This document shows positions 1,650 through 22,373 of a stretch of 64,000 nucleotides of DNA, in pieces. The notes under the pieces are model-generated. The model saw only the letters and a list, made by a program, of their open reading frames with translations. It had not been told where the DNA came from and did no database searches. The stretch spans positions 1,833-65,832 of the forward strand of contig JAEWER010000037.1 of NCBI GenBank assembly GCA_023389255.1. The letters are read 5' to 3'. Each line of letters begins with the position of its first letter. Position 1 is the first letter of the stretch. The translations under genes were made by a program, and so were the position numbers. This DNA is from Bacillota bacterium. Lineage in GTDB: Bacteria > Bacillota > Clostridia > Saccharofermentanales > DTU023.

Positions 1650-1651
1650 GA

Positions 1652-2176: not shown

Positions 2177-2203
2177 CTTAGTTCGTCCTCTAGTGGGTAC
2201 AAT

Positions 2204-3886
<1,683 letters not shown>

Positions 3887-3919
3887 TCAACTACTGACTT
3901 AATCCCGCTATAAAGTTAA

Positions 3920-3941
3920 AACGCCTAGGAAACTAGGCGTT
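3920..3941 (-). terminator. Intrinsic terminator downstream of infA
   Basis: Hairpin AACGCCTAG-nnnn-CTAGGCGTT lies 8 nt after the infA stop, followed on the minus strand by TTTAACTTTA. Confidence 0.6.
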
Positions 3942-3948
3942 GTATTTT

Positions 3949-4167
3949 CTATTTGGAGCGCCAAGTGATGCGACCTTTGCTTAAGTCGTAAGGCGATAGC
4001 TCGAGCGTCACATGGTCACCAGTCAAAATCTTGATGTAGTGTTGACGAAGCTTACCCGATAAGTGAGCAATAACTTCATGCCCGTTTTCTAGTTGTACAC
4101 GGAACAGGGTATTAGGTAGAGTATCAACAACTACGCCTTGAACCTCGATCAGATCTTCTCTTGCCAT
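3949..4167 (-). CDS. infA: Translation initiation factor IF-1
   Basis: 72 aa, [41 protein letters not shown]... ATG at 4165..4167 is preceded by AAGGAGAA. The 126-aa ORF in the track is an upstream over-extension. Confidence 0.95.
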
Positions 4168-4198
4168 ATATTCTCCTTGATTACAAAATTCATTGCCT

Positions 4199-4206
4199 AT
4201 TTTACA
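4199..4206 (-). promoter_or_regulatory. Candidate extended -10 promoter for infA
   Basis: Minus strand reads TGTAAAAT (TGn + TAAAAT) about 32 nt upstream of the infA ATG and overlaps the stop codon of the upstream M29 gene. No good -35 element. Confidence 0.35.
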
Positions 4207-5314
4207 CCATGCTAATGGTTTGTTGTAGACAACCTTTGCTAAGTAAATCAATTTGTAAATCTGGTGTACCAAAACAGATATCAAGATGCAGATCGCTTTG
4301 GTTATAAAACTGCGATAATTCAGCTTCACTTTTACCTTGCAGGCAAGGAGTATATGTTAAGGGATAGCTAGCTCCTAAGGCAAAATGACAACCCGCATTT
4401 TCATCGAGTAAGGTATCGTAGTAAACACGCTTAATACGCTGAGCTAAAACTATAGCTATTTCACCTAAATATGCTCTATCCAGACGATCAGCCAACAAGT
4501 TATTCAAAGGTACATAATCGCTTTCAGCTTTTCCCGCCTTAAAAGATAAATTGCAAGGTGCAAATTCTGCTCCTGCGTAACAGAAAGGTCTTTGCGTCAA
4601 AACGTTACCTTCTACCCCATATTTAAGTGGTGCCGTAAAACATTCAAAAGTAGGGAAATTAGGTAAATATTTACGTCTCTCTACACCTTGGCAAATTTGT
4701 CTACCACCAATAAACGGAGCATTGGCAGGTAGCTGAACTCGCAAATCACAAGTACTACTTCTAAAGTGCAAACTATCGATTGTACTTTGATTTAAGCAAC
4801 GCACTAGCGCTTCGATTTTTGCTAGGTCAGATTGATAGTTACGAGTTATTTCACCTAATTCAGCCGCTAATTCCACTTCGCTAAGTTTTAGTTTATTCGC
4901 CCAGGCTTTACTAGCAATTACCGCCGAACAACTCACCACTTTACCTGCTTGGGTTAATTTCTTGAATGGTTTCAGCGCATCTATAAAAGCAAGATAGACT
5001 AGTTCCGATAGCTGTCTTAAGCAACTTTGATTCAATTTAAGAAAGCAAACTCCTTGCCTATGATAAGCACAGAGTTTTGTTGCTAATTTTCCAACGCTAG
5101 CTAGCTTTCCTGTCGACTTAAATTCGGTTTCTAACTCTTCTATTATCAGAGTATCTACGTATGGTCTATTTCCTGAAATAGCAGTAGCCTGACTAACAAG
5201 TTCATTTATATCTAACCCATCAACACACAAAATGTGGAGCTGATCTCCCTTGATCAGCCCCACGCCTAAAGTCAGTAACTTATGTAAATAATCACTATAA
5301 CTATTGCAAACCAT
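4202..5314 (-). CDS. M29-family (AmpS/AmpT/PepS-like) aminopeptidase
   Basis: Family-like motifs [32 protein letters not shown] and [10 protein letters not shown]. The N-terminus [22 protein letters not shown] fits the family when starting at the ATG at 5314 (370 aa). That start overlaps the upstream gene by 14 nt. Confidence 0.6.
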
Positions 5315-6017
5315 ATTCTTTGACCGCTTGATCAATTGCCTGTCTACACTTTGCATAACCAGCTGCAATGCCATCTGGATCTTTGAAGAGAGCAGATGAC
5401 AAAACTACAACATCAGGATTAGTCTCTATCAATGGCGCAATATTATCGTGTCTGATGCCACCATCAATTGATAGCTCACACCTAGGATTACATTCATCAA
5501 TCAATTTTCTCGCTCGTTTCAGCAGATGCACGACTGATCTACGCCAACCCCAATTGTCAGCGCCATCTGTTTCATCGACACCATGAGTGACTACGTGTAG
5601 ACGATCGATATCGTAAATCGACTCTTCGACGAAAGACAAAGGTGTATAGCAACCAATGGTGAGTCCAATTTTTAAGCCACGCTCACGACACCAGTTGATA
5701 ATATATGCCAGCGGTGCACCAATGAAATGTTCAGCTGGAATTATTAACATATTGGCTCCTGCCTTGGCGATTTGATCAATGAACATTACATCCATTGAGC
5801 GTGTGTAAATGTGACATTCAATCGGCTTGTCAGTTACAGGGCGAATACCATCAATAATCTGATAACCACCCATCAGCTTCATATTTTGTAAATCATGCAT
5901 GTCGGCGGCATCTGAATGTACGTAATCAACGCCCGCTTCCACAGCTTGTCTTACTACTTCAGCAATATTGCCATAGTTTACATGTGCTAAACCGGCAGCA
6001 ATTTTAATGTGTTTCAT
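5301..6017 (-). CDS. Ribulose-phosphate 3-epimerase family protein (Rpe/AlsE-like, diverged)
   Basis: Aligns by eye to Rpe: GVDYVHSDAAD (cf. VHFDVMD), IECHIY (cf. IDVHLM), LSIDGGI (cf. LEVDGGV), VLSSALF. ATG at 6017 is preceded by GGGAGGAG. Confidence 0.7.
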   Translation of the reverse strand: MKHIKIAAGLAHVNYGNIAEVVRQAVEAGVDYVHSDAADMHDLQNMKLMGGYQIIDGIRPVTDKPIECHIYTRSMDVMFIDQIAKAGANMLIIPAEHFIGAPLAYIINWCRERGLKIGLTIGCYTPLSFVEESIYDIDRLHVVTHGVDETDGADNWGWRRSVVHLLKRARKLIDECNPRCELSIDGGIRHDNIAPLIETNPDVVVLSSALFKDPDGIAAGYAKCRQAIDQAVKEYGLQ

Positions 6018-6038
6018 AATTTCTCCTCCCAATATGAC

Positions 6039-7673
6039 TTAAGCTAAATTCAGGCGCTCTCGCATGGTGGTAGCAATTTGCCCAACCTGCACGCCATAGA
6101 TAATTTGAAAATTTTTATCTCCTCTCAGCACGCCCTTAGCCTCAAGATGCTCTAGCCAATATTCGGTATCTGCAACTTTTGTGCCGTCAAACACTGTCAC
6201 TCGCAATCTGGTAGCACAGTTACCCACTGCTTCAATATTTTCGCTACCACCAAAGGCAGAAATAATGCGCTCTACTAAATCAGCGGTATCGCTGCTAGTA
6301 GCGCTAGACTTTTCGCTTTTAGCCTGTGCATTTTCAGCTTGCTGGTTGCGATAATCTTGCTTGCTAAACAGCTTGATCTCTGCTTGCTTTTGCTTTCTTC
6401 TACCAGGAGTGGGCAAATCAAAGCGCTTAATTACAAAGCTAAAGACAAAGTAGTACAGCGCAAAGGTTAAAGGCAACAACCACAGCGCATGGATGGCATG
6501 CACTTTATGCGGTTGCGCTAAGTTAGGGATCATGAACAGTAAAGCCGTTCCGTTAATAGATATCTGGAAAAACTCAGCTAGCACATACATCAAACCACAG
6601 AGCGGAGCATAAACTAACCAATACAAAGCAGGTGCTACAAATAAGAAAGTGTATTCAATCGGTTCAGAAATACCGACCAGAGCGAGTGTAAACACTGCAG
6701 GGATCAGAATTGAGGCAACACGCTTCTTGTTTTCGGGTAAGGCTAACTTATACATTGCGAGAGCTGCTCCAGGCAAGCCTGCTAATTGGAAGAGCAATCT
6801 ACCATTAGTAAAATTGCGCACAATATAACCAGTAGCTGTAGCACTAGCCGCTTGTCCATTGATGATGTTTTTAACTCCTTCATACACTACCCCATCAATA
6901 TTCATGGTACCTCCAACCGCTGAATATTCAATTGGGAAAGCGATTAAGTGATGAATACCAAAAGGCAATAACGCCTTATCGAGCGTCCCGAAAACAAAAG
7001 TACCAAAAAGTCCCGAAACACCAATAAAGTGTGTCAAGCTCTGTAACAGATAGGCTAGCAAAGGCCAGAGATAATAAAAGATATAGCCCAAAACCACCGC
7101 ACTGAATGTAACGTTGATAATCACCCAACGCACACCACCAAAGAAAGCAAAAGTATTAGCAAAGCTCTTATCTACCAAGCGGTTGTGTATTAAAGCTGCT
7201 ACCACACCAGAGATCAGGCCTGAAAAGATTCCCATGTTGTAGGTAAAAATGCCCGCCACAGATGTAAACATACTACTGAAATTAAGAGCCGCTTCCTTCG
7301 CCATACCACTAGCTATTAATGCATCCGCTGTTGTTGTTTCAGCGGTATAACCATGAGCTTTCGCTAAGGTTTGCAAACAGACATTAAAAGTGAAAAATAA
7401 GACTACACCAGCAAAAGCTGCCCATCCTTTTTCTTTTTTAGCTAAAGTAAAAGCCACACCTACTGCAAACCAAATCGGCAGATAGTTCATGAAAAGAAAA
7501 CCCATATTGACAAACATGCCAAATAAAGGTTGAAGCCATGAATTCTCTGGTAATAAATAATTGTTGACTGCAGAGCCAATACCGACATAAAAACCGACTA
7601 ACACAAAAAGAATGATGGGAACCATCATAGCGCCAGCAAAGCTCTGCACTTTTTCTTGAAAGCGCTTAAACAT
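6039..7673 (-). CDS. PTS sugar transporter, EIIC-EIIB fusion (glucose/maltose family)
   Basis: A polytopic membrane domain of roughly 430 aa is followed by a Q/S-rich linker and the EIIB(Glc) cysteine motif GNCATRLRVTV. No EIIA domain. Confidence 0.85.
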   Translation of the reverse strand: MFKRFQEKVQSFAGAMMVPIILFVLVGFYVGIGSAVNNYLLPENSWLQPLFGMFVNMGFLFMNYLPIWFAVGVAFTLAKKEKGWAAFAGVVLFFTFNVCLQTLAKAHGYTAETTTADALIASGMAKEAALNFSSMFTSVAGIFTYNMGIFSGLISGVVAALIHNRLVDKSFANTFAFFGGVRWVIINVTFSAVVLGYIFYYLWPLLAYLLQSLTHFIGVSGLFGTFVFGTLDKALLPFGIHHLIAFPIEYSAVGGTMNIDGVVYEGVKNIINGQAASATATGYIVRNFTNGRLLFQLAGLPGAALAMYKLALPENKKRVASILIPAVFTLALVGISEPIEYTFLFVAPALYWLVYAPLCGLMYVLAEFFQISINGTALLFMIPNLAQPHKVHAIHALWLLPLTFALYYFVFSFVIKRFDLPTPGRRKQKQAEIKLFSKQDYRNQQAENAQAKSEKSSATSSDTADLVERIISAFGGSENIEAVGNCATRLRVTVFDGTKVADTEYWLEHLEAKGVLRGDKNFQIIYGVQVGQIATTMRERLNLA

Positions 7674-7700
7674 ACAGCCTCCTCGTTTTTCTTTAACTAT

Positions 7701-7715
7701 AGGAAGACGCTTCCT
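7701..7715. promoter_or_regulatory. Perfect 6-3-6 palindrome in the divergent regulator/PTS intergenic region
   Basis: AGGAAGACGCTTCCT lies 28 nt upstream of the PTS start codon. It is a candidate operator or leader hairpin, and no U-tract follows it. Confidence 0.3.
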
Positions 7716-7766
7716 GTCTCTTTGTCGTTTTTTGCACTTTTAATAGTGAAGATTTAGTCTGTATCT

Positions 7767-9194
7767 ATGCAAAAGATTGTCTACCGTGCTTTAGAATTTT
7801 TAGCCTTACATCGAGAAGAGTTCACTTTGCCAGAGGTGGCAGATCATTGTGAGCGGAGCTTACGAACTCTACACCACTACTTGCCAGAAATAAAAGCAAT
7901 ACTTGCCAATTTAGATATTGAATTAGTACTGGTGCAGGGACATCAAAGTTTTTTACGAGCAACACCTATACAAGTACAAGCTTTATTTGATTTTCTTGCC
8001 AAAGAGAAGCGTGCCAGCAAGGGCACTTCCTTATTTGCCCAAAGACAAGTTAGACTCTGCTACATCTTGCATCGCTTATTAGTCTTAAATCAGCCTATTA
8101 CCAGCAAGGCATTAAGCCAAACCTTGTTGATCTCTAACTCTCAACTACAACAGGACTTAAAAGTGCTAGAACGCCAGCTAATAACCTATGATATTCAGCT
8201 ACTGCGTGATAAATGGCATCGCCTTCGTCTCGAAACAGGAGAAAAACGTACACGAGTAGCTATTTTAGATCTATTGCTGCCGTGGGCAAACGAACACTAT
8301 TTTGGAGACTATCTGCTTTTGCAATGGCAAAGCGATGTTCACTTGCAATACCTAGTCGAGCAATTTTTACACAAGTCATTGCTCAGCTGTGGCTTGGCAG
8401 CACCACTAAAGCAGCAACGCATCGTAGATCTGATCTTAATTTCACTCTACCGCTTAAAACAGGGAAAAATGGTTAAACTTGCACCTAGAACACAACATTT
8501 ATTAGACGACGATTTACTGAAAGCTCTCAAGCAGAGTAGTTCTACCCTAGAGCATGAACTCAAGCTATACATTCCTAAACAAGAATTAATCTATTGGTCT
8601 GCTTTTATCAAGGGACACAATTTTTACCACTCCACTCCCGACACTTACAGCAGTGTACAGTTAAACTGCTTCAACCACATCTACAATCTTTTAGCAGAAA
8701 TTAAACCAGAATTACTCCCAAGGCTCTCTACTGGCTTACTACCTTTTTTAGCAGAAATCAGCCATAGACATAATTTTGATCAGGTCTATCACTTCGATAG
8801 CAACAGCAACAGCCGATTGCTCTTACAAGAAAATGAGATAATAATCCAAAAATTGAATGATCAAATAAAACAAGATCTGGCAATCTCGCTACCCACTAGT
8901 TATCAGGAAAAATTAGCCGTAATTATAGCGACACTAGCCCTACCGAATAAAAACAAACTCAAATTGAAAATATATCGTCAGCTAGAAACAGTAATCTGTG
9001 ATTATAATTTGGCTCTCATCTCACAACTTTATGCTGACTGGCAGGAAGTTAAAACAGAAGATCAAGCCGATGCTGTAATATGTTTTGGCAATCAGCAAAC
9101 AAACGTAGAGAATAAACCTTGTTTTGTGATAAACAGTGTTCTTTCTCATAAACAAGCTAAACAGCTTGCTCTAAAGCTACTAGATTTACTCTAA
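7767..9194 (+). CDS. PTS-operon transcriptional regulator (HTH + Mga/PRD-like helical region + C-terminal EIIB-like segment)
   Basis: Two N-terminal wHTH-like segments (FTLPEVADHCERSLRTLHHYL; ITSKALSQTLLISNSQLQQDLKVLE). The gene is divergent from the PTS gene. Domain assignment is by resemblance only. Confidence 0.55.
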   Translation: MQKIVYRALEFLALHREEFTLPEVADHCERSLRTLHHYLPEIKAILANLDIELVLVQGHQSFLRATPIQVQALFDFLAKEKRASKGTSLFAQRQVRLCYILHRLLVLNQPITSKALSQTLLISNSQLQQDLKVLERQLITYDIQLLRDKWHRLRLETGEKRTRVAILDLLLPWANEHYFGDYLLLQWQSDVHLQYLVEQFLHKSLLSCGLAAPLKQQRIVDLILISLYRLKQGKMVKLAPRTQHLLDDDLLKALKQSSSTLEHELKLYIPKQELIYWSAFIKGHNFYHSTPDTYSSVQLNCFNHIYNLLAEIKPELLPRLSTGLLPFLAEISHRHNFDQVYHFDSNSNSRLLLQENEIIIQKLNDQIKQDLAISLPTSYQEKLAVIIATLALPNKNKLKLKIYRQLETVICDYNLALISQLYADWQEVKTEDQADAVICFGNQQTNVENKPCFVINSVLSHKQAKQLALKLLDLL

Positions 9195-9215
9195 AACTAG
9201 CTGCGCTACTCTGAA

Positions 9216-9656
9216 CTATCTGAGTTGCTCCAAAGCTCGACGAATTTCACTATCTAGATAACTCTTTGGTGCAGATTTAGGTAGTTTAGTACGCTTTTTC
9301 TTTGCTTCTCTCTGCCAGGTAAAGCTAGTATCCTTTTGGCATAACTCAGCAAAATCAGTACGCAACTGCTCGACTTGCTCAAGGCTATAGAGTGGCTGAA
9401 TTGGTCTGATATGCTTGAGTGATTTTAATTTAGCGTTAGCTAAGGGATGATGTTCTCCATCCACCAACCATACTCCATATAGATCATCTGCACGCTCAAC
9501 TAAATCGATTACCAAGTAGTAACGACCTTTATCGTGGCCAGCGATTGCTTGCACAGCAATACCCACTAAACTCGTACAACCTTGCAACGCTTCTCTTTCA
9601 ACTCGATTGCATTTTTGACGTATCGGCAACTTCATGTTCAGTTTGCTTATCCTCAA
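9216..9656 (-). CDS. KOW-domain RNA-binding protein (the map-infA-associated type)
   Basis: Core GIAVQAIAGHDKGRYYLVIDLV...VWLVDGEHHPLANAKLKSLKHIRP and its position directly after map. Start is uncertain: TTG at 9656 or ATG at 9635. Confidence 0.6.
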   Translation of the reverse strand: MRISKLNMKLPIRQKCNRVEREALQGCTSLVGIAVQAIAGHDKGRYYLVIDLVERADDLYGVWLVDGEHHPLANAKLKSLKHIRPIQPLYSLEQVEQLRTDFAELCQKDTSFTWQREAKKKRTKLPKSAPKSYLDSEIRRALEQLR

Positions 9657-9663
9657 TAGCTAC

Positions 9664-10473
9664 TTACTCTTTGCTCTGATAAGCATATTCTGGATGTGCC
9701 AGCGCTTCAGCTTTGGTTAACGATAAAACTTTAGGACCTGCAGGTGTTACTACAAAACAATTTTCGTAGTGAGCAGCTGGGCTACCATCCAAAGTGACAA
9801 TGGTCCACTCGTCGCTTTCTATACCAATACGGTAATCACCCAAGGTAACCATAGGTTCTAAACACAGGGTCATACCAGCTTCCAAGCGTAAACCTCTACC
9901 AGGATTACCATAATTGAGTAGTTCTGGGCCCTCATGTAGATTGCGACCCAGTCCATGACCACTCATTTCTCGCACAATGCCAAAACCATGCTTTTCACAA
10001 TGAACTTGCACAGCATGAGAGATATCGCCAATGCGCTTACCCAAGACAGCTTGCTCTAATCCTAGCCAAAATGACTCTTCGGTAACTCTAACTAGTTCCC
10101 TAACTCGTGCATCTACTTCTCCCACACAAAAAGTACGACAAGCATCTGCCATGTACAGATCTAGCTCGCACCCCACATCGACCGACACAATATCTCCAGA
10201 CTGAATAATACGATCTTTACGGGGAATGCCATGCACTACTTCATCGTTAACAGAAACACATGCTGAACCAGGAAACGGTGGTGTACCATAGTTGAGAAAA
10301 TTAGGTTTTGCACCGTGTTCCGCAATAATCTTGAACACCAAATCGTCGATATCCTTAGTGGAAATTCCAGGGCGAATGAAATTTTCGCAGGCTTCAAAAA
10401 TGCGTGCCACAACTTGGTTTGCACGATACATTAGTTCTACTTCGTGTTCGCTTTTAATGAAAATTTTATCCAT
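9664..10473 (-). CDS. map: Methionine aminopeptidase, type I
   Basis: 269 aa with the pita-bread motifs DVGCELDLYMADACRT, SGHGLGRNLHEGP and LEPMV. Confidence 0.95.
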   Translation of the reverse strand: MDKIFIKSEHEVELMYRANQVVARIFEACENFIRPGISTKDIDDLVFKIIAEHGAKPNFLNYGTPPFPGSACVSVNDEVVHGIPRKDRIIQSGDIVSVDVGCELDLYMADACRTFCVGEVDARVRELVRVTEESFWLGLEQAVLGKRIGDISHAVQVHCEKHGFGIVREMSGHGLGRNLHEGPELLNYGNPGRGLRLEAGMTLCLEPMVTLGDYRIGIESDEWTIVTLDGSPAAHYENCFVVTPAGPKVLSLTKAEALAHPEYAYQSKE

Positions 10474-10488
10474 AGTGCTTATTGTTAT

Positions 10489-11130
10489 CTATTCCTCTGC
10501 TAATTCTGCCAAAGCACAAGCTAAAACTTCTTCTGGGCTTTGCATGGAGTCAATGCTGATTAGCTGATTATCTGTGCGATAGTAGTCAATCACCGGTTCT
10601 GTTTGGCGATAATAAACTTTCAAACGTTTCTTGATAGTTTCGGGCTTATCGTCATCTCTTTGCACCAAGCGAGTACCACAAATATCGCAAATACCAGCAA
10701 CTTTAGGAGGCTTGATCAAGAGGTTATAACTCGCACCACATTCGGGACAAACCCAACGATTAGAGATGCGTTCAACGATAATATCCTCATCGACACTCAG
10801 CGCTATAGTATGCGTTACTTTGCGCCCTAAGCGATCCATCATCACATGTAGCTCTTTGGCTTGTTCCAAGTTGCGCGGATAGCCGTCTAAGATAAAGCCC
10901 TTCTCGGCTTGTTTCAGACGCTCAAAGAGCATCTGATCTGTAATCTCATTAGGCACCAATTTGCCTTGATCAATGTACTTCTTAGCTTCTATGCCTAAGG
11001 GTGTTTGTTCACTGATGTTCTTACGAAACAAATCGCCGGTTGAGATGTGCTCCAAATCTAATTTGGTCAGCAGATTTTTCGCCAGTGTGCCTTTACCTGA
11101 GCCAGGCGCACCTAACAACACGATATTCAT
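10489..11130 (-). CDS. adk: Adenylate kinase (zinc-lid type)
   Basis: P-loop GAPGSGKGT, and lid CPECGASY...CDICG. Confidence 0.97.
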   Translation of the reverse strand: MNIVLLGAPGSGKGTLAKNLLTKLDLEHISTGDLFRKNISEQTPLGIEAKKYIDQGKLVPNEITDQMLFERLKQAEKGFILDGYPRNLEQAKELHVMMDRLGRKVTHTIALSVDEDIIVERISNRWVCPECGASYNLLIKPPKVAGICDICGTRLVQRDDDKPETIKKRLKVYYRQTEPVIDYYRTDNQLISIDSMQSPEEVLACALAELAEE

Positions 11131-11162
11131 AAACTTCCTCGATGTGTGGAGATATACAATTT

Positions 11163-11168
11163 AGTATA
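11163..11168 (-). promoter_or_regulatory. Candidate -10 element (TATACT) for adk-map
   Basis: TATACT on the minus strand lies 32 nt upstream of the adk ATG and just downstream of the giant-gene terminator. Only weak -35 candidates are present (TAGACT at 19-nt spacing). Confidence 0.3.
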
Positions 11169-11198
11169 ACGCAAAGCAGGCGCAAAAAGTCTAGCCAT

Positions 11199-11229
11199 AA
11201 AAAAAGGCGTTGCTCTTAAGAGCAACGCC
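11199..11229 (-). terminator. Intrinsic terminator of the giant surface-protein gene
   Basis: GGCGTTGCTC-TTAA-GAGCAACGCC (10-bp stem) followed by T7 on the minus strand, 20 nt after the stop codon. Confidence 0.85.
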
Positions 11230-11249
11230 TAGAACAGCTATATTTTCGC

Positions 11250-14200
11250 TTAGCGCTTAGTTTGTTTTTTGCGAACCACTACAGCTAGACCTGCTAGGGC
11301 GATCAATACAGTAAGTAATCCAGTTGCACCTGCTACCTCACCCGTTCTCGGTACAATGCTATTCACAATGTTTTGAACTTGGCTCGGCATGACTACATTC
11401 TCTGTTCTGCTGGGCACGGGTTCTGCAATCTTGCTGTAGACCAACTTGATCACTTGCTCACCCTTGACTACTTTGCCCTTGAGCGGTGCAGAATCATCTG
11501 CCAACTTCTCGTACTTGTAACCATCGATGGTGATGGGTTCGTAGCTGTACTCTGTGCCTACTGCGACATCAGTGAATACTACTTGTCTCTCGACATCTGG
11601 GATTGCCTTACCATCTTCATCCACAAACTCAACTGTTACGCTACCACGCTCTAAGTCGGTGAATAAGGTGAATACAGTAGGCTCAGTAATCTTATGTGCT
11701 AGTACTTCTTCATCTGTGAGTTTGTCCTCACCACCTGCGATGCTCCAATGGCTGAAGTAATAGACATCAGGTTGCAACAAGTCGAACTCAGGCAGTGCCA
11801 CTTTCATCTCATCAAAGAATTCACCATCTTTGAGGCTGGTTCCTTCCTTGACAAAGTACTCAGGAACATCACCCTTGAATGCCACTTTGTCTTGTTGCTC
11901 TAACGGTACCTCGAAGCTCACCTTGTGATAAGTATCGACTAGGATCTTCACTTCTACATTCGGATCGACAAACTCATAGTTCAGCGGATCGATTACGGTA
12001 TATCCATCTGGACCAACCACTGCAAAGTCTGTTGCTTTGTACTTGTGCAGACCGTCTGTTCCATCAGTATTCAAGATAGGCAAGTCTGACGGATCAGCGA
12101 TAGGCTCACCGTAGAGTACAGTGACTTCGCGCTCGTTGGGTACCTCAGCATTGCTGGGGTTAGTAAATGTATTGATATCTGTCTTGAACTTGATGCGGAC
12201 AGTGCTGTCATAAGTCAGCTGACTGTCGCTCAAGGTACTTTCAACCGCTCCCATGGAGTTACGTTCAACACGTACTTTTAATAACTTGCCGTGGAATTGA
12301 CGGATCAGGTTAGACGGAATATCAAACACGACTTTACCGTCAACCACTTTACCGATAATCGCATCGGGTGTTGGTGTTGAGGTGCTGTAAACAATCTCAG
12401 ACACCAGCGTTGCTTCTGCTTCTGTTTCAGTCGTAGTGGCTGTATTAGCATTGCTATTTACAGCAGGCTTTTCGTTAGTTTCAGCAGAAGTTGATGCATT
12501 GTTAGTTTCTGGGCTGTTAGCCGGTTGCTCTGTGCTGTTAGCCGGTTGCTCTGTGCTGTTAGCGCTTTCATTGCTTGCTACAACACCAGAACCATTTTCG
12601 GCAGGTTGTGCCCCTACTTCACCAGCTACATTTTCTGCGCCAACTTCATTGGTTGTATCAGCCTCATTTTCCGTACCATTCTCTGTATTAGAAACTGAAC
12701 TGTTAGACGTATCAGCGCTATTTTCGTCTGTTGCGGGTTGAGCGTTAGCGTTGCTTTCAGTAGCATCGCTCTCGGCATGGTTGCTCTCAGCTACATTTTC
12801 GCTGGGCTGATTTACTGCTTCATTGCCTGTTGTAGCGTTATCTTCAGAAGCTACTAGCTTATTCTCAGCAGATTTATCACTGGTCTCGGTATTGGTTGCG
12901 GGTTTAGCTTCAGTCGGCTTTTCTGCTTCAGGTTTATTCACTACGTTTGTAGCACCAGAAGTCTTCCAAACATGACCAACTTCACCACCAGTATTGCTCA
13001 GATCTTCAACTGCGATCGGGCTACCATCAACACTGCTCAGCTTATTTCCATTTTCATCTGTCAGATAGTAGATAACGCTACCTTGTTCAGCTGCACTGGT
13101 ATTGAACCAGCTATCGGGCAATTCAGCGGTCACTTTGAAACCATCTTGCCCCAAATTCTTCGCATAGGGCAGATATGTTGCAACGAAGAGCATGTCGTGA
13201 TCAATCACTTTATCACCACGCATCAGTTTACTAGTCTCGTTATCTAACCACAGCGTACCCTTAAATTCTTCATACTCACTGATCAAAGGTTTGACCAGAT
13301 CGCTGGTTAACTTAGCAGCTTTCTTCTTGACGTAGTACTTAACTGTATTGCTATTCACTGCTTCACCAAATTCACCAGCATCAAATAGCACTGTTACGTA
13401 GCCAGCTGGGCGACTCTCAACGTCCTCGGCAGGAATAATATCGTCTTGATCTACGTGGTAGAAGAATGTTACTGGCTGATTGATGGGGTAAGCTTTGACA
13501 CCGGCATCGTCCAATTCCTCTGTCCCCTGGTTGGCTTGCCACTTCAGGAAGTGGTAGTTACCAACAGGTGAGATAGAGGCAATTTTATTGGTGCCTAAGT
13601 TGCTACCGTGCTCAATGTAGTAGACAGGTACTTGATCATCGTATCTAGCGTAATCGTTAGATGACTCAGCAATGGCAAATGTGACCTTGTGGAAAGTTTT
13701 GTTATTAACTGTCACGTGGTTAGTTTTTGCCACAAACTGATGTGCTGTCGGATTAAAGTCTTCGCTGTCTTCTGTGCTGTAACCTGTTTGTTCATAACGG
13801 TTGTTGTCTTCAGCATCCTTGGTGATGATGGTGGGCAACTCATTCTTATCGACGCTTGCGCCATACATCACTTTAACCACTCTCTTCTTAGGAGATTTAG
13901 AATCGTTACCATTGGTCAAGGAAACTTTTGCTTCAAAGACTACTTCAACCATGCTGTCATAAGTGACGCCTGTGGTGCTAATAGTATTTTCATCGTCACC
14001 ACGTGCCACCATGACATGCAAATCTTTACCATTCAACTTTTCAATCACGTTCGGCTGAGTGCCAGTAGGAATTTCAAAGGTGATGGTATTGTCTTCTCCA
14101 ATCTTGCCTGTAATAGCCTTTTGCGGATCTAAGTCCCTGGTCAGAGTGCCATCTTTGCTGACGTAGTAGGTTACAGGTGTGCCGTTTTCATCACCCTGCA

Positions 14201-17200
14201 CAACAAGGTATGATCCCAGACCATTTCTCTCGTCATCACCTAAGCTATTAGGCAATTTGGCGGTGATGTTGAAACCATCCTCTTCTTGTTCTACCTCTGT
14301 TGCAACTGGCAGATACTTAGCGGTGATGGTGTAAGGCTTGTTTTCATCCTGGATCAGCTCGCTCAATTTGCTTGCTTCCTTAATCACAACATCCTTAGCA
14401 TCCACCCATGAAGTATGCACATAATTGCTTTCAGGTTCTAAATTCGCCTTAGCATCAAAACGCTTGATCAGATCACCAGCGGTCAGTACAGAATTACGGA
14501 TACGTACTAAGAAGACAAAATCAGCGTCTTTTTTAATCTTGCCGTGTTCACCTGCATCGAAGACCACAGTGTAATAACCAGGTTTGGTTACTCTCGGATC
14601 TTTACCAGGAATGACCTCAGGACCATTTGCATAAGATGCGTTAAAGGTCAGATTTACATTTTGAATTACGGTTTCTTCTGGTACCGGACTCCACTTATCA
14701 AACACTTGTCCGTTAGGAGCATTGGGTTCGCTTACAGCTAATTGTGAAGCCTTGATGTTCTTGTTTTTAGCTACCCAGAATTTCTTCTGTTTGACGTTGT
14801 TAGCAAACGAACCGTCCTTAGCATCAAAGATGACTTCGACGTAACCGAAGGGAGGTGTGGTACCCTCTGGATCAGGGATAATGTTCTCACTCTCGACGTA
14901 CAGATAAATATCTGTGTTGTCATTGATCGTTATTGCCGGCACCTCAGTAGCTGATTCGTACTTGGTTGTGCCATTGTCTGCTGACCAGTAGGCGAACTCA
15001 AAGACATCATGTGCCATGGTGGCACTAGGCATCGTGATGGGGTTACCATCAAAGGTTTCGTTCTCATCTAAGTCCGTGGTTTCTTTGACATAGTACTCTG
15101 TGGTACCAGTTAAACTTGCTTGTTCACTATGTTTAGGCAGGAAGCGCACGCGGTAGTAGGTATCGAAGTTAACCATGATCTGCTCCACTTTATCGGGAGA
15201 GGTTGCGGTGAACTCTTTGCCTAGCAGTGCATCTTTAGCCAATTTCTTTTCCGTCTTGTAATCGTAGCTTGCGATCTTGTACTTAGCATGTGTGGTTGCA
15301 TCTGCCACATCGCTGATGGTGGGCAGATCACCCTGCTGCAAGCTTGAACCATAGACCACGTTCACAGTTTTGAGTTTAGCGTTAGCCCCTGTCTTATCAT
15401 CACCATTGGTAAAGTCACGAACTTGGGATACGAACTGCACCTTGACAGTACCTACATACGTAAAGTCAGTAGCGCTGGAGGTGGTGTATTCGCCTTTCTC
15501 AATGCGTACTTTCATGGTTTTACCGTTGAGAACTGCCACATCATCAGGCTTGATATTAAAGACAACGCCGTCCTTAGTAATCTCGCCAGTAATGGGTGTA
15601 CCATCGCTACCTTTGACGATGACAGGCTGGTTATTCTCATTTTGCTCGGTCAGGAAGACTTCGTAAGAAGCATAATCGCTTTCTTGTAAGTCTTCGGGCA
15701 ATTTAGCCGTGATATTCCATGTTTTATTGCCGTCAGCATCAGTTGCTTGTGCAGGTGCGCTGGCAACAGGAATGTAATCGGCAACCAGAGTTGTTTTAGA
15801 CTCAGTGATAGCTGCTGTGCTCTCAGCTAGCTTAATTGGTTGACCATCTTTTAACCAAGTGGTGAACTCATATCCTGCGGTTTGATTATCTGCATACTTG
15901 TTCGGGACTGGTGTTGGTGCATACCCTTTGATGTCGTTAAGTGACTTGCTGACGTCATCTCTCAAATGCACAACATTTTGTGTGTTAGGTGCAAAGGTAC
16001 CGTACTTGCCAGAGTTAAACACAACTCTCTTGTCGTAACCCGGCAACTCTTCGTCTTGATCACCAGTTTGAATTTCAGGCATATCACCAAAGATAGCATT
16101 TACAGCATCATTACCTGTGAAATCTTTATCGATTACAGTTGTATCTGCAACACTGTATCGGTTAAATACATACCCTGGTTTGGCGGTCGGATTTTCTACG
16201 CCTAACTCATTCAACTTCTTAGTTGCTGTTTTTAGTACCCAAACTTTGCGCTCTTGTACTTGAGCTTGGTTGAGAGTCCAATAACCCTTAGTGGCATCGG
16301 CCTTAAACACTACTTCATAGAAGTCGTTAGGCTTGGAACCATTAGGATCTAAGACGACTTCTTTAGGTAAGAATCTCACATCGTATTGCACTGGACCAGT
16401 AACTGTTTCTTTGTCCATATCAGCAACTTTGACACCGTTCTTAGCAAAGCCATCAGCTGCATAAACCTTTGCATCGTTCTCTTGAATCGTGGGAACTGTC
16501 AAGCTACCACCATCAAATAGTGGAGCCTTATTAACATTGCTTCCCTTAAGGGCGTAGTAGACAAGGCTTGAATCGCTTTTGTTTTCGAAACTACCTTTGT
16601 TGCTATCAACAACAAACTTAACCTTGGAATAGGTGTCATAAGCTACTGCAATCGCTACCTGTCGCTCAGTCTGTTTATCGTTATTGACATCAACAGCCGT
16701 ATTGCCATTCATGTAAGGGTTGGTGCTGCTCAATTTGTACTTGTTATCTGGTTCTGTGCCTTCGTCAGACTCCTTAATTGTGGGCAAACTACCGCTTAAG
16801 GTTGAGCCATAATCAATTGCAACCGACTTCTGTTCATTATTACCAGCATCACCGTCAGTAAATTGTGAAGCATTGGTGCTGTAGACTACGTGAACTTTGC
16901 CATCATAGGCAACATTCATTGGATTACTCACGGCTTGATCGCCCAATGAGTTCTCCGAAATGGCCTTGAGATTTTTACCATCTAAATTCTTGATGGTAGG
17001 ATTGCCCGTGTTGGGTATCTCTGTAGGAATTGTGAACTTAACAGTTTTGCTTGCCAAATCAACTGTACCTGTTAAATATTCTTGATCGGCACTGGGTGAG
17101 GTAACTGGCATGCCATCTTTTCCTAATCTATTGCCACTGTCATCGGTGAGATAAAAAGTGACACCAGCCAAATCTTCTTCTGTTACGTCGCTTGGAAGTG

Positions 17201-20200
17201 TGGAAACAATATTCCAACCATTAGTAGTACCTGCGACATAGTCTTCTTGTCTAACTGACTGCAAGATGGGTAAGAAACTAGCCGTAAACACCGTATCAGC
17301 AGTAAAGTTAGCACCACTTTCACCAAAAGTCATTTGGTTATGATCTGTCGTATCTTGTGTAGGATCGTAAAACTTAGTTTGACCTCCGACTTTGTAGGTC
17401 CACTTGTCTGTTTTCTGATAATTCGTTTCTTGCCCAGCTTTGGCACTAACTTGAGGCTTAACTATATCCTTATTACCTAATTGAACAAGTGGATTAGCTT
17501 TTTTATTGATGAAGTATGCTGTTACTTGATCTTTACCGTCTACTAGTTTAAATTCTCCATGATCACTAGGTAGGAAGCTCACTTCTAGGTATTTATCAGG
17601 ATCAGGATTTTCCATCTCTCCTACTTTAGGAATAACATCGCTTTGCAGAATGTATTCAACATCTAAAGTACGTCTGCTTTTCATGAGCAACGATGAATAT
17701 CCTTTCATGGCTTCATCATTTAATCTGCGCTCATATATTTCTTTCGTTCCGTCAGCATTAATAACTTCAAGTTTCTTAGGTACGATAGAATCTTTGTCTG
17801 CTTTATCTACTTCTGCCGCTAAAATATTGACACTTGCGCCGATAACAGAGTTAAAACCATACACAGCTCTAGCTTTGCCGGTGTCGGTAGCAGACTTCTT
17901 TAAAATGTGTCTTACAGCAAACTGTGTACCGTCTGTGTTTTCATCATCGCTGTAAACAGCTTGCAAAGTAAATGTATCAATCAGACGATTACCATGCTTA
18001 TCTGAGATGCGCAAGACAGCTCCTTCACTGCCATTAGCATTTATTTGATGCAGAGTTCTGATGTCCACCTCTTGACCAGGTAGCAATCTATACCCAGTGT
18101 CTGTAATTTGTTCACCATTTTCTACATCTAGTTTCCAGTGTAAAAAGGTATGACCTTGCTTTACGGGTTTACCTAAAGGCACACGAATAATAGGGTTACC
18201 TTCAACGTTCAAAAGATATCTGCCGTAATCTTTTGGGTTTTCAACCACGGTGTTTCTTTGTGGCATTTCCACCCCTGATGGTGCTGAACCCCCATCTAAA
18301 TCGAAGCCTAATGGCGTCTGTAATAATCTAGACTGAATACCAACAACATTCATGCCACCATAACGCACATGTTTGTTGTCTCCATCCGTAAAGCTTGAAC
18401 CCCAAGCAAAGATGGGGAATTCACCATAGAAACCATAATTAGGTGCCTGCGATTCATTCGGTTTCAATTGAGGCCATGCCTCAACACCGTGAATAGGCGA
18501 CACCGTGTCATCACTAAAGAACGGTGCACCATAACCATTTTTAACATTGCCACGCAACTTAATTTTGGGATCAGCAGCTTCATAAATTCCTGGTCTACCA
18601 CCTGATAGACCTTCCTTAACTAAGGCAGGTCCATCAATCCAAGCGCTACCACCAGCATCAAGCCATTTCAGTTGAGGGTTATGGCTACCATCAGCTTCAT
18701 TTATTTTGGAAGCATGAACTTGCACATCTTCTATACCGTAATTGTTATACAGTCCAACCTTGGTCAAGTTGGTAGTTGCCCATTCCGTATCCACATTAAT
18801 ACTTGTTGGTACGTTTTCAATTTTTATATTGTAAGCGAGGCGCATGGAGTTGAAATAACCTTCCCTACCACCCCAATCGTTGTGATAACTGCCTGATTGG
18901 TTACCCGGAACAATCTCACCATTGTTGTATGTCCAACTCAACAAATTGCCTTGGTAATTCGAAGGTTTAGCATCCATAATCTGAATACTAACTTTAGCTC
19001 CAGCCAAGGGACCATGTTCAATGGTAATTTCATTCTTTTGATTTATTACCTTTTGCTGGATCTGACTGTTATACCACTTCAAGAAACCTTGATCATGATT
19101 GTCCTTACCATACGCATGCCAATAGGGATCCCAACCTTCACCTTGTGCAAAAGCACTGACAATACCCGGATAGGCTTTGTACTTATAACCTCTATTCCCA
19201 TCATATCGGGGTCTACCTAGTAGGTTAGGGTCTTCTTGAGGATAAACAGATGGACCAAAGCGACCAAAAGGTTGTGGTGCACCAACTACAGTAGCGCTAG
19301 CTCCTTTGTCAGACGAAAACCATACAGCACCCAACAATGACATGATATTGCCAAAAGCATTTTCGTCTACACGGTCATGGTATGCCTTAATATTAACCGT
19401 ATCACCAAAACGGTAGTTTTGTTGCGAAGAATCAATTGCTACTTTGGTATCTCTGTATTGGAAGTTCTTGCCATTACCACGATTCCAGTCATGAGAATTG
19501 CCACTGACATCTCTAATTGTCAACGTTCCTTTGTCTCTAGCAGATAAACGCACTGCAACTTTTTTGCCTTCGTTGACTGTTAATTTGTAACGCAATACCG
19601 TTCTATCAGGAGAAGAAATATCTTCTAATACCTCAACTTGTGCATTTTGTGTACCACTTGCATCGATAGCAACAAGAGGTTCATAGTCACGTCTAACTGA
19701 AACAGTAAAACTAGCTATGGCATGACCATTCTTAAATTCTGCATAATCTGGACCTTGATAGGCAAGACTGCCATGGTTCTCTACTACATATGAAATAGGC
19801 ACAATGCTAGCTGTGGGATAATATTCAAAATAAATTCGGTTAGTTACACCTTCGGATTTACTGTAAGGATAAGAGTGTTCAACTTTCTCCTCTACAACAT
19901 TTCCCTGTTCATTCAATTCTTTTATGTTGAAGAAAACTCGATCAGATGTTTGGGGTTGCGAGTTTGAATCTAATACTAATGAACCATCTGAGTTATATTC
20001 CTTAACATTACGCAACTCAGCCTTAGTAATCTCCAGCTTATTAGCATTAGCAGGTTTGAGATTATCAATTATATAAGCACGAATAAACTCATATCCTGGG
20101 ATTACCGGTGCAGTTTTCGCATTGATAACTCCACCCTTGAACTCAACAGAGCTCATTGAGGATAAAGTTGTCTCACCATCAATAGTTCGAATTTTAAGGC

Positions 20201-20318
20201 CAACCCTAATTGGTTGAGTCAACTCTTCTGCCCACAATTGCTTGGGTAAATCAAACCAGAAACTAGCAACAAGTAAAACTGCTAGACAAATGGCTACAAC
20301 TCTTCGTGTTTTCTTCAT
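11250..20318 (-). CDS. Giant cell-wall-anchored surface protein (3,022 aa) with signal peptide, Flg_new/Listeria-Bacteroides-type repeats, a MucBP domain and an LPXTG-like anchor
   Basis: Single uninterrupted ORF. ATG at 20318 is preceded by AAGGAGAA; the track start at 20339 is a TTG. Signal peptide MKKTRRVVAICLAVLLVASFWF. C-terminal VPRTG + hydrophobic helix + RKKQTKR. Confidence 0.9.
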   Translation of the reverse strand: MKKTRRVVAICLAVLLVASFWFDLPKQLWAEELTQPIRVGLKIRTIDGETTLSSMSSVEFKGGVINAKTAPVIPGYEFIRAYIIDNLKPANANKLEITKAELRNVKEYNSDGSLVLDSNSQPQTSDRVFFNIKELNEQGNVVEEKVEHSYPYSKSEGVTNRIYFEYYPTASIVPISYVVENHGSLAYQGPDYAEFKNGHAIASFTVSVRRDYEPLVAIDASGTQNAQVEVLEDISSPDRTVLRYKLTVNEGKKVAVRLSARDKGTLTIRDVSGNSHDWNRGNGKNFQYRDTKVAIDSSQQNYRFGDTVNIKAYHDRVDENAFGNIMSLLGAVWFSSDKGASATVVGAPQPFGRFGPSVYPQEDPNLLGRPRYDGNRGYKYKAYPGIVSAFAQGEGWDPYWHAYGKDNHDQGFLKWYNSQIQQKVINQKNEITIEHGPLAGAKVSIQIMDAKPSNYQGNLLSWTYNNGEIVPGNQSGSYHNDWGGREGYFNSMRLAYNIKIENVPTSINVDTEWATTNLTKVGLYNNYGIEDVQVHASKINEADGSHNPQLKWLDAGGSAWIDGPALVKEGLSGGRPGIYEAADPKIKLRGNVKNGYGAPFFSDDTVSPIHGVEAWPQLKPNESQAPNYGFYGEFPIFAWGSSFTDGDNKHVRYGGMNVVGIQSRLLQTPLGFDLDGGSAPSGVEMPQRNTVVENPKDYGRYLLNVEGNPIIRVPLGKPVKQGHTFLHWKLDVENGEQITDTGYRLLPGQEVDIRTLHQINANGSEGAVLRISDKHGNRLIDTFTLQAVYSDDENTDGTQFAVRHILKKSATDTGKARAVYGFNSVIGASVNILAAEVDKADKDSIVPKKLEVINADGTKEIYERRLNDEAMKGYSSLLMKSRRTLDVEYILQSDVIPKVGEMENPDPDKYLEVSFLPSDHGEFKLVDGKDQVTAYFINKKANPLVQLGNKDIVKPQVSAKAGQETNYQKTDKWTYKVGGQTKFYDPTQDTTDHNQMTFGESGANFTADTVFTASFLPILQSVRQEDYVAGTTNGWNIVSTLPSDVTEEDLAGVTFYLTDDSGNRLGKDGMPVTSPSADQEYLTGTVDLASKTVKFTIPTEIPNTGNPTIKNLDGKNLKAISENSLGDQAVSNPMNVAYDGKVHVVYSTNASQFTDGDAGNNEQKSVAIDYGSTLSGSLPTIKESDEGTEPDNKYKLSSTNPYMNGNTAVDVNNDKQTERQVAIAVAYDTYSKVKFVVDSNKGSFENKSDSSLVYYALKGSNVNKAPLFDGGSLTVPTIQENDAKVYAADGFAKNGVKVADMDKETVTGPVQYDVRFLPKEVVLDPNGSKPNDFYEVVFKADATKGYWTLNQAQVQERKVWVLKTATKKLNELGVENPTAKPGYVFNRYSVADTTVIDKDFTGNDAVNAIFGDMPEIQTGDQDEELPGYDKRVVFNSGKYGTFAPNTQNVVHLRDDVSKSLNDIKGYAPTPVPNKYADNQTAGYEFTTWLKDGQPIKLAESTAAITESKTTLVADYIPVASAPAQATDADGNKTWNITAKLPEDLQESDYASYEVFLTEQNENNQPVIVKGSDGTPITGEITKDGVVFNIKPDDVAVLNGKTMKVRIEKGEYTTSSATDFTYVGTVKVQFVSQVRDFTNGDDKTGANAKLKTVNVVYGSSLQQGDLPTISDVADATTHAKYKIASYDYKTEKKLAKDALLGKEFTATSPDKVEQIMVNFDTYYRVRFLPKHSEQASLTGTTEYYVKETTDLDENETFDGNPITMPSATMAHDVFEFAYWSADNGTTKYESATEVPAITINDNTDIYLYVESENIIPDPEGTTPPFGYVEVIFDAKDGSFANNVKQKKFWVAKNKNIKASQLAVSEPNAPNGQVFDKWSPVPEETVIQNVNLTFNASYANGPEVIPGKDPRVTKPGYYTVVFDAGEHGKIKKDADFVFLVRIRNSVLTAGDLIKRFDAKANLEPESNYVHTSWVDAKDVVIKEASKLSELIQDENKPYTITAKYLPVATEVEQEEDGFNITAKLPNSLGDDERNGLGSYLVVQGDENGTPVTYYVSKDGTLTRDLDPQKAITGKIGEDNTITFEIPTGTQPNVIEKLNGKDLHVMVARGDDENTISTTGVTYDSMVEVVFEAKVSLTNGNDSKSPKKRVVKVMYGASVDKNELPTIITKDAEDNNRYEQTGYSTEDSEDFNPTAHQFVAKTNHVTVNNKTFHKVTFAIAESSNDYARYDDQVPVYYIEHGSNLGTNKIASISPVGNYHFLKWQANQGTEELDDAGVKAYPINQPVTFFYHVDQDDIIPAEDVESRPAGYVTVLFDAGEFGEAVNSNTVKYYVKKKAAKLTSDLVKPLISEYEEFKGTLWLDNETSKLMRGDKVIDHDMLFVATYLPYAKNLGQDGFKVTAELPDSWFNTSAAEQGSVIYYLTDENGNKLSSVDGSPIAVEDLSNTGGEVGHVWKTSGATNVVNKPEAEKPTEAKPATNTETSDKSAENKLVASEDNATTGNEAVNQPSENVAESNHAESDATESNANAQPATDENSADTSNSSVSNTENGTENEADTTNEVGAENVAGEVGAQPAENGSGVVASNESANSTEQPANSTEQPANSPETNNASTSAETNEKPAVNSNANTATTTETEAEATLVSEIVYSTSTPTPDAIIGKVVDGKVVFDIPSNLIRQFHGKLLKVRVERNSMGAVESTLSDSQLTYDSTVRIKFKTDINTFTNPSNAEVPNEREVTVLYGEPIADPSDLPILNTDGTDGLHKYKATDFAVVGPDGYTVIDPLNYEFVDPNVEVKILVDTYHKVSFEVPLEQQDKVAFKGDVPEYFVKEGTSLKDGEFFDEMKVALPEFDLLQPDVYYFSHWSIAGGEDKLTDEEVLAHKITEPTVFTLFTDLERGSVTVEFVDEDGKAIPDVERQVVFTDVAVGTEYSYEPITIDGYKYEKLADDSAPLKGKVVKGEQVIKLVYSKIAEPVPSRTENVVMPSQVQNIVNSIVPRTGEVAGATGLLTVLIALAGLAVVVRKKQTKR
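11253..11354 (-). other. Sortase sorting signal (VPRTG variant of LPXTG, TM helix, basic tail)
   Basis: IVPRTGEVAGATGLLTVLIALAGLAVVVRKKQTKR at the extreme C-terminus. Confidence 0.8.
11445..11645 (-). other. MucBP-like domain
   Basis: GSVTVEFVDEDGKAIPDVERQVVFTDVAVGTEYSYEPITIDGYKYEKLADDSAPLKGKVVKGEQVIKLVYSK matches the MucBP pattern (vtv.YvdedGk...G..y....i.GY.l......G.......v.YvY.k). Confidence 0.7.
12411..12938 (-). repeat. 176-aa low-complexity (N/S/T/E/A-rich, acidic) segment inserted in super-repeat 4
   Basis: NKPEAEKPTEAKPATNTETSDKSAENK...NSNANTATTTETEAEA lies between VGHVWKTSGATNVV and TLVSEIVYSTSTP. The other three units have no equivalent segment at this point. Confidence 0.8.
12513..12563. 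repeat. 21-bp perfect tandem repeat (2.4 copies)
   Basis: GCTGTTAGCCGGTTGCTCTGT occurs at 12513..12533 and 12534..12554, then a partial copy. It encodes the ANSTEQP heptad repeats. Confidence 0.9.
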
Positions 20319-20397
20319 ACAATTCTCCTTCAGGCACAACTTTCCAAAGTGAGAATCATTTTATTCTTTTAGCTACTGGTCACATAAGTAAATTTCG

Positions 20398-20411
20398 AAA
20401 AAAAAAAAAAA
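20398..20411. repeat. A14/T14 homopolymer upstream of the giant gene
   Basis: 14 consecutive A on the plus strand (T14 on the coding strand), 80 nt upstream of the ATG at 20318. Confidence 0.95.
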
Positions 20412-20523
20412 TAAGCATTGTTTGTAACTTAAGGAACTTTTGTCTTGCAAAATTTATCCGTAGGCAAGCATATCAAAAAACATGTGATTTGGATTATCGC
20501 ATAAGATGCTGGATAACTTAAGT

Positions 20524-20549
20524 AAAAAAAAGAGGGGGCATTCCCCCTC
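20524..20549 (-). terminator. Intrinsic terminator immediately after secY
   Basis: GAGGGGG-AATG-CCCCCTC followed by T8 on the minus strand, 23 nt after the secY stop. Confidence 0.85.
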
Positions 20550-20572
20550 GTGCGAATATAAATTTGTGTTAA

Positions 20573-21896: not shown

Positions 21897-22373
21897 CTAT
21901 GCCTCGACTTTAGCCTTGCGTTGTTTAGTAACCTCAACACTACCGCCGGCTTGCTCAATTTTCTGACGTGCACTCTCTGTGCAGGCAGCAACTTGTACAG
22001 TCAGCTTCTTGTTCAACTCACCACGTCCCAAGATTTTGATACCATCGTGAACCTTAGGAATCGTTAAGACGCCAGATTCATGAATGGTATGGGCATTGAC
22101 CACATCACCATCGTTGAAACGGTTCAAATCTTCGATGTTGATCTCGTGATAATGTAAAGCAAAACGTTTGTTGTTAAACCCACGCTTAGGTAATCTTCTG
22201 TACAAAGGCATCTGACCACCCTCGAATTGAGGACGGACACCGCCACCTGAACGAGCATTTTGACCCTTGTGACCACGGCCAGCAGTCTTACCATTACCTG
22301 AACTATGACCGCGACCTTTACGCCAAGCTTTTTGACGTGCACCGGGAGTAGCTTTCAGCTCATTTAACTTCAT
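21897..22373 (-). CDS. rplO: 50S ribosomal protein L15
   Basis: [38 protein letters not shown], in the expected operon position. Confidence 0.95.

Follow-up and report, generated by a model that had tools for sequence, protein, structure and literature searches.

A giant adhesin-like gene between secY and adk in an uncultured Clostridia genome: probable insertion downstream of an older terminator-like hairpin

How did a gene of ~9 kb come to stand between secY and adk, and did its arrival change the transcription of the genes behind it? The question is raised by a 64-kb window (the whole stretch of DNA analysed, 64,000 nucleotides (nt) of contig JAEWER010000037.1) from an uncultured member of the Clostridia. 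The minus-strand order is rplO (21897-22373), secY (20573-21886), an open reading frame (ORF) of 3,022 amino acids (aa) (20318-11250), adk (11130-10489) and map (10473-9664). The giant ORF is predicted to encode a surface protein with the architecture of an adhesin. The comparisons described here favour, with a probability of about 0.72, a lineage-specific insertion of this giant-adhesin gene just downstream of a terminator-like hairpin that already followed secY. The original prediction, made from the letters of the window, had also placed an accessory gene inserted between secY and adk and had added that it rewired the operon. Synteny with relatives supports the first claim, whereas the hairpins of insert-free relatives speak against the second.

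The secY-adk junction in relatives

The relatives were graded by the identity of their SecY to that of the window, and show the following arrangements downstream of secY:

L085, SecY 83% identical: hairpin, gene for a 198-aa DUF5067 lipoprotein, its own hairpin/terminator, then a converging gene (region 3995-5061)
L086/L087, SecY 75% identical: 65 nt, then adk-map-orf100-infA
L088-L090, SecY 71% identical: 81 nt, then adk-map-orf109-infA-rpsM-rpsK-rpoA-rplQ

The synteny comparison showed that the 75% and 71% relatives have a secY-adk gap of 65-81 nt in place of the 9 kb of the window. The block adk-map-small ORF of the window (9216..11130, minus strand) is orthologous to and collinear with that of the relatives. 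The identities between the window and L086 are 52% for Adk, 65% for map, 37.5% for the small ORF and 93% for infA. Judged from these sequences, adk, map, the small ORF and infA of the window are ordinary vertical orthologues. Because the relatives keep the secY-adk adjacency and the flanking genes are orthologous, the giant gene is best read as a lineage-specific insertion. An accelerated or xenologous adk was considered and rejected, as Adk is fast-evolving across the whole clade (46% identity between L086 and L088). The SecY homologues of the window come from metagenome-assembled genomes (MAGs) labelled Clostridiaceae, Eubacteriales or Clostridiales. A scan of a species-level genome collection with Adk gave a best match of 51% identity and no close relatives, and was of use only for comparison across phyla.

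The short gap is also the common state at larger distances. Among 72 distant loci, drawn from many phyla, in which secY precedes adk, 62 have a gap of <=250 nt, with a median of 62 nt. The conserved string secY-adk-map-infA on which the original prediction relied is kept in the 75% and 71% relatives, with a small ORF before infA, and its secY-adk step in these 62 loci. In the window genome it is broken at further points as well. Ten of the 72 loci, all in other phyla, carry 0.3-5.8 kb of unrelated cargo between secY and adk, comprising LuxR-AAA regulators, three GT2 glycosyltransferases, an acyltransferase and DUF proteins. In Solirubrobacterales MAGs (L066, L072, L075 and L078), the interval spans 3-5.8 kb and encodes either large AAA regulators of the LuxR family, on the opposite strand, or the three GT2 glycosyltransferases in tandem.

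The same data bear on the reverse history, in which the giant gene was ancestral at the secY-adk junction and was deleted in the relatives. This history has no direct support, although the native composition of the gene described below would be compatible with a long residence. However, the secY-adk spacing is tight in both relatives with data and in the 62 loci across phyla, and no orthologue with more than 38% identity in the N-terminal head region of the protein was found among 1.84 billion representatives. An ancestral giant gene is therefore next to negligible as an explanation.

Terminator-like hairpins and leaders

The features around the junction are as follows:

20573-21886, minus strand: secY (Pfam SecY, E 3e-105), which closes the intact S10-spc block that begins with rpsJ (31018-31341)
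20524..20549, minus strand: intrinsic-terminator-like hairpin, 23 nt past the secY stop
20319..20523, minus strand: 5' intergenic region of the giant gene, 205 nt, AT-rich, sequence read directly
11250..20318, minus strand: giant surface-protein gene, ATG at 20318, stop at 11250, 3,022 aa, ~9 kb
11198..11230, minus strand: intrinsic-terminator-like hairpin, 19 nt past the stop of the giant gene
11131..11197, minus strand: adk leader with TATACT at 11168-11163 and the ribosome-binding site (RBS) GAGGAAG, sequence read directly
10489-11130, minus strand: adk (Pfam ADK, E 7.5e-53)
9664-10473, minus strand: map (Pfam Peptidase_M24)

Both terminators that had been predicted to bound the giant gene are present. 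The stem of the post-secY hairpin (20549-20532, GAGGGGG-AATG-CCCCCTC) has 7 bp, of which 6 are GC, with an AAUG loop, and is followed by a U8 run ending at 20524; its folding energy is -14.8 kcal/mol (z = -3.4). The stem after the giant gene (11230-11205) has 11 bp, 7 of them GC, followed by U7, and folds with -24.8 kcal/mol (z = -5.6). Terminator-like sites in the region number 12, compared with 9.7 +/- 3.4 in shuffled sequences, and thus are not in excess. The two terminators are therefore supported by their quality and placement rather than by number.

Structural comparison of the intergenic regions showed that a hairpin-plus-U directly follows secY in all three insert-free relatives, with folding energies of -18.6 (L085), -25.6 (L086) and -24.2 kcal/mol (L088). 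The L086 hairpin reads AUGUGGCCGC-UUCG-GCGGCCACAU. Similar post-secY elements are found in several other Clostridia and are uncommon elsewhere (8 of 49 intergenic regions). Since the insert-free relatives carry an equally strong hairpin-plus-U at this place, the post-secY boundary is older than the insert, and from its distribution the window hairpin is probably ancestral to the insertion. The rewiring of the operon was thus overstated, because the insert landed at an existing attenuation point and did not create one. For the same reason, namely that the cargo landed at an existing terminator, the essential genes adk, map and infA would not have been suddenly cut off. The locus cautions that "terminator-bounded" need not mean "rewired", as here the upstream terminator preceded the insert. 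The L086 hairpin and the adk RBS lie too close together to accommodate a promoter, and adk in that relative must depend on read-through or on a promoter located within secY.

The insert appears to have arrived self-contained, with its own leader, ribosome-binding site and terminator. The Shine-Dalgarno sequence proposed for the ORF is present (AAGGAGAA at 20330-20323). The upstream region contains a T14 run (20411-20398) and, ~34 nt downstream of the run, a possible -10 element, TAAAAT. The T14 run might act as an UP-like element, or it might be prone to slippage and so allow phase variation; it has the same length in one independent assembly (L001). The adk gene had been predicted to restart behind TATACT. 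The hexamer is indeed located 33 nt before the adk ATG, with a lone -35-like hexamer, TAGACT, 19 nt upstream. However, the promoter scan did not call it, the promoter is weak by consensus, and an independent promoter is not demonstrated. No riboswitch or leader RNA was found in either intergenic region, neither of which matched an Rfam family. In the proposed scheme, most transcripts of the spc operon would end at the secY hairpin, as is probably the case in the relatives, and the giant gene would be expressed mainly from its own AT-rich upstream region. Transcription of adk-map would come from the weak local promoter, from read-through, or from a combination of the two.

The giant protein and its head family

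The 3,022-aa protein is divided into the following parts:

20229..20318, minus strand: Sec-type signal peptide, aa 1-30 (KKTRR, hydrophobic core, LWA before EE; assigned by inspection)
17619..20201, minus strand: head region, aa ~40-900 (~860 aa), a rare undescribed domain family
11649..17297, minus strand: stalk of four diverged super-repeats, aa 1008-1507, 1508-1996, 1997-2374 and 2375-2890
12399..13001, minus strand: low-complexity spacer rich in Ser, Thr, Asn, Glu and Ala, aa ~2440-2640, within repeat 4
11436..11639, minus strand: MucBP domain, aa 2894-2961 (Pfam PF06458, E 1.4e-7)
11253..11354, minus strand: C-terminal sorting signal, with VPRTG at 11354-11340 (aa 2989-2993), a hydrophobic segment and RKKQTKR

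The signal peptide, as seen in the translation, reads MKKTRRVVAICLAVLLVASFWFDLPKQLWA followed by EE. The super-repeats of the stalk are ~380-500 aa each and 26-35% identical to one another in self-BLAST and alignment, giving a stalk of about 2,000 aa in total. They hold modules resembling the Listeria-Bacteroides repeat, with a weak match to Flg_new. The AlphaFold 2 (AF2) model of a repeat unit (predicted local distance difference test score, pLDDT, 61) shows a chain of beta-domains, whose Foldseek matches to PitA and SpaC, both pilus adhesins, and to immunoglobulin (Ig) and ubiquitin-like folds are weak and hold at the level of domain class only. A 21-nt tandem repeat (12508-12563) within the spacer encodes STEQPAN units. 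The L083 contig from another sample differs from the window by a single 21-nt gap of unmapped position, probably one unit of this repeat, which fits a copy-number difference between samples. The MucBP domain scores 32.6 bits against a cutoff of 23 and is present in one copy, unlike in the multi-copy Mub proteins. The sorting motif keeps P, T and G of LPXTG, with V substituting for L, and precedes 22 hydrophobic residues and the basic tail.

Sortase-dependent fibrillar or "periscope"-type adhesins of Gram-positive bacteria consist of a signal peptide, an N-terminal adhesive head, a repetitive stalk and a C-terminal sorting signal, and the MucBP-containing mucus-binding proteins of lactobacilli are one example. 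The window protein resembles them in its overall architecture, its MucBP domain near the wall end, its Listeria-Bacteroides-repeat-like modules and its low-complexity spacer. It differs in that its head belongs to no described family, its repeats are old and diverged (26-35%) rather than near-identical, and its motif is VPRTG rather than LPXTG, with no match to a hidden Markov model (HMM) of the anchor. The surface-adhesin reading of the original prediction is reasonable, as the signal peptide, the MucBP domain, the VPRTG motif and homologues heading pilus operons all agree with it. The label "sortase-anchored" fares less evenly. A VPxTG/IPxTG signal is present family-wide, but it is not the canonical LPXTG and the anchor models do not recognise it. 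The protein would be exported via Sec by its N-terminal signal peptide and would be processed by sortase at VPRTG. The ~860-aa head, a putative adhesive module, would then be displayed away from the cell on the ~2,000-aa stalk formed by the four super-repeats, the spacer and MucBP.

The head region matches no Pfam or NCBIfam family. An exhaustive HMMER search of the 1.84 billion representatives found 12 head homologues at E<=1e-10, and the head is 28% identical to the N terminus of one protein, P0007 (E 3e-68). A word-based search of 5.8 billion proteins with the whole protein returned one relative only. Invariant motifs of the head include PQPxxRFG, GPLAG, DAKP, TEW, NYGVE, KNGY and GGMN. At the C terminus, the homologues carry VPETG, VPNTG, VPVTG or IPRTG ahead of a hydrophobic stretch and a tail of basic residues. 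A cholesterol-dependent cytolysin fold was considered for the head and rejected as noise (Foldseek template-modelling score, TM, about 0.07).

The short members of the family are of ~1,000 aa (P0127, P0129 and six metagenome loci) and consist of the head, MucBP and VPETG or VPNTG. They are encoded by the first gene of operons that also encode a 402-aa DUF7601 protein, a sortase, an FctA-like protein and an S26 signal-peptidase-like protein. The FCT pilus operons of S. pyogenes encode Cpa, SipA, the major pilin FctA and a sortase, with the motifs VPPTG (in Cpa) and EVPTG, and VPPTG is a proven sortase motif in FCT pili (PMC3019223). The operons headed by P0127 and P0129 are alike in their sortase, FctA-like pilin and S26 SipA-like protein, and the window protein shares the VPxTG-type motif. 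Because the short members occupy the position of the tip adhesin in these FCT-like operons, the head is probably an adhesive tip module, as judged by this analogy, and a role of VPxTG as sortase motif is plausible on the same grounds. However, the window gene is flanked by secY and adk, has no pilin, sortase or SipA neighbour, and is three times longer. Furthermore, no sequence or fold similarity of its head to Cpa was detected, and no thioester or isopeptide domain was identified. From its sequence the window protein may be either wall-anchored or pilus-borne. The insertion event and the fibrillar sortase-type adhesin are of known kinds, and the rare head-domain family is the new element. Being common to giant wall-associated proteins and pilus tip adhesins of gut Firmicutes, the ~860-aa head is a candidate new adhesin family.

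Other giant members are located after cobW (L092) and beside a HAD hydrolase (L091). The L092 homologue (1582-10512) is the closest with full architecture, its head being 32% identical and followed by similar repeats. Its coding sequence is divided into two called ORFs (976 aa and >2,804 aa) separated by ~400 nt, although the homology extends across this interval; the split could reflect a frameshift, a pseudogene or an error of assembly. A further giant of the same head family, P0132 (2,621 aa, L096 34-8360), contains a Rib domain. Its gene directly precedes infA-rpsM-rpsK-rpsD-rpoA-rplQ, at a distance of 243 nt, in a distant organism whose infA is 53% identical, and is followed by a hairpin with a T-run.

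The position of P0132 raises the question of whether the location itself is advantageous, so that giants with this head are placed recurrently in the distal spc/alpha cluster, for example through leaky read-through from a highly transcribed operon, origin-proximal dosage or synthesis beside secY. With about five other independent contexts of the family and a region of about six junctions, one more case in this region would have a probability of ~0.015 under uniform placement, a rough estimate. However, the comparison is post hoc with n = 2, the other members lie elsewhere (in pilus operons, after cobW and beside the HAD hydrolase), and the 10 loci with unrelated cargo show the secY-adk junction to be generally permissive. 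In addition, the L096 contig begins in a Nextera adapter (GATGTGTATAAGAGACAG), so the upstream neighbour of P0132 is not visible. Selection for the location is thus improbable; if true, it would mean that the site is advantageous rather than just tolerant of insertions.

Assembly, composition and the surrounding cluster

A lineage-specific insertion presupposes that the contig is correctly joined. The L001 contig (Logan, SRR13243539) covers rplR through secY and the 5' 1.36 kb of the giant gene with 100% identity. The 3' end of the giant gene, together with adk, map and sequence beyond, is covered by L082 and L083 (ENA contigs from two other samples) and by L084 (a Logan contig), over 5.6, 5.6 and 1.3 kb of the giant gene, respectively, with 99.8-100% identity. 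Each junction, secY-giant and giant-adk, thus recurs at 99.8-100% identity in assemblies made independently, which come from three samples in all, and the mis-assembly named beforehand as a possible flaw was not found. A chimeric MAG contig, or an error of binning, would be suggested by the exact 3,022-aa protein being recorded in full from a single NCBI contig (140,689 bp), with no exact entry in the contig index, and by two ENA assemblies that both break at 16886. However, the agreement at each junction, the uninterrupted ORF and the recurrence of the head-then-repeats order in the L092 homologue render such an artefact very improbable. L082 and L083, from different samples, both start exactly at position 16886, inside the giant gene, where a strain-variant branch point or a drop in coverage is possible. 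DNA repeats were rejected as the cause, as no repeat or low-complexity sequence is located there.

The profile of GC and codon usage against the flanking genes, suggested beforehand, gave no sign of foreign origin. The GC content of the giant gene (0.43) and that of its third codon positions (GC3, 0.39) are inside the host range, and its codon-usage distance is within the range of 53 other genes, so a foreign origin by composition was rejected. As had been stated, no transposase or integrase and no flanking direct repeats were found around the giant gene, nor were inverted repeats or a tRNA; with composition not atypical either, none of the marks of a genomic island is present.

Several observations weigh against the insertion as described or against the nature assigned to its product. 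The native composition, together with the lack of repeats and mobility genes, gives no pointer to a donor or an insertion mechanism. No independent assembly covers the middle of the giant gene (16887-18959, 2.07 kb), where the ORF is continuous. The promoter scan found no convincing sigma-70-type promoter for the giant gene or adk. For the protein, the AF2 model of the head is poor (pLDDT 59.7) and has no fold match by Foldseek against the PDB, the LPXTG-anchor models (Pfam Gram_pos_anchor and NCBIfam LPXTG) give no match, and no sortase is encoded among the scanned ORFs of the 64-kb window. Finally, the nearest relative, L085, does not show the secY-adk adjacency, and the junction may have been broken before the giant gene arrived.

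This last point is the core of a different history, in which a rearrangement or a variable region had already broken the secY-adk link in the common ancestor with L085, and the giant gene is merely the current occupant. The region downstream of secY is variable within the clade, as L085 shows: its secY hairpin is followed by the lipoprotein gene, a terminator and the converging gene, with no adk within 1 kb. Two more breaks nearby in the window genome, and a giant gene with native codon usage and no insertion scars, would fit this history as well. However, the L085 contig ends after that 1 kb, so adk may sit further on. Furthermore, adk-map-orf has kept its ancestral order and orientation and is separated from secY by only 9.4 kb and one gene, for which a single insertion is the simplest explanation. 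An earlier break of the junction is therefore regarded as rather unlikely, and a single lineage-specific insertion is preferred.

The window genome has three breaks in the distal spc/alpha cluster, namely the giant gene, a 5-kb cassette and pyrG after infA. The features of the two further breaks and their surroundings are:

9216-9656, minus strand: small ORF of 139-146 aa between map and the 5-kb cassette
4171..9215, mixed strands: second insertion, a 5-kb cassette that parts the small ORF after map from infA
7767-9194, plus strand: PRD regulator resembling Mga/AcpB-EbpR-MafR
6039-7673, minus strand: phosphotransferase-system (PTS) EIICB
5301-6032, minus strand: ribulose-phosphate-epimerase-like
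4202-5374, minus strand: M29 peptidase-like
3949..4170, minus strand: infA, 5 kb away from map and 31 nt behind the M29 gene

In the relatives, the small ORF directly abuts infA and the cassette is lacking. In the window, infA is followed by a hairpin (3941-3920) and then by pyrG (2204-3871) instead of rpmJ-rpsM-rpsK-rpoA-rplQ. In the ribosomal cluster of other bacteria, a few genes are first inserted between operons and full disconnection follows later, as for tusDCB between rpoBC and str, bfd-bfr and ilv-leu between str and S10, and nrdHEF between rplL and rsmC (PMC8046335). The insertion of the giant gene would be one of the three breaks that fragment the distal cluster here, and it would fit this pattern of small insertions before disconnection. 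As in those cases, a few accessory genes are placed in a conserved cluster without evidence of distant horizontal transfer. Full disconnection is observed in other lineages or at other junctions, and the infA of the window no longer precedes rpmJ-rpsM. The window differs in that the site is inside the distal spc operon (secY-adk) rather than between named operons, that the host is an uncultured member of the Clostridia outside the taxa of that study, and that a single surface-protein gene of 9 kb, equipped with a terminator of its own, makes up the cargo. As an instance of how the most conserved gene cluster of bacteria erodes, the locus is clean and datable, and it comes from outside the taxa examined to date.

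Some minor observations concern the neighbouring genes. The alpha operon must sit elsewhere in the window genome. The Mga-like regulator was considered as a controller of the giant adhesin; its divergent pairing with PTS EIICB makes a local sugar regulator more likely. The 31-nt gap to the M29 gene suggests that infA, an essential translation factor, may share a transcript with the sugar-PTS operon. The small ORF has 139-146 aa compared with 100-109 aa in the relatives (37% identity), and carries a basic C-terminal extension at the place where the version of the relatives abuts or overlaps infA.

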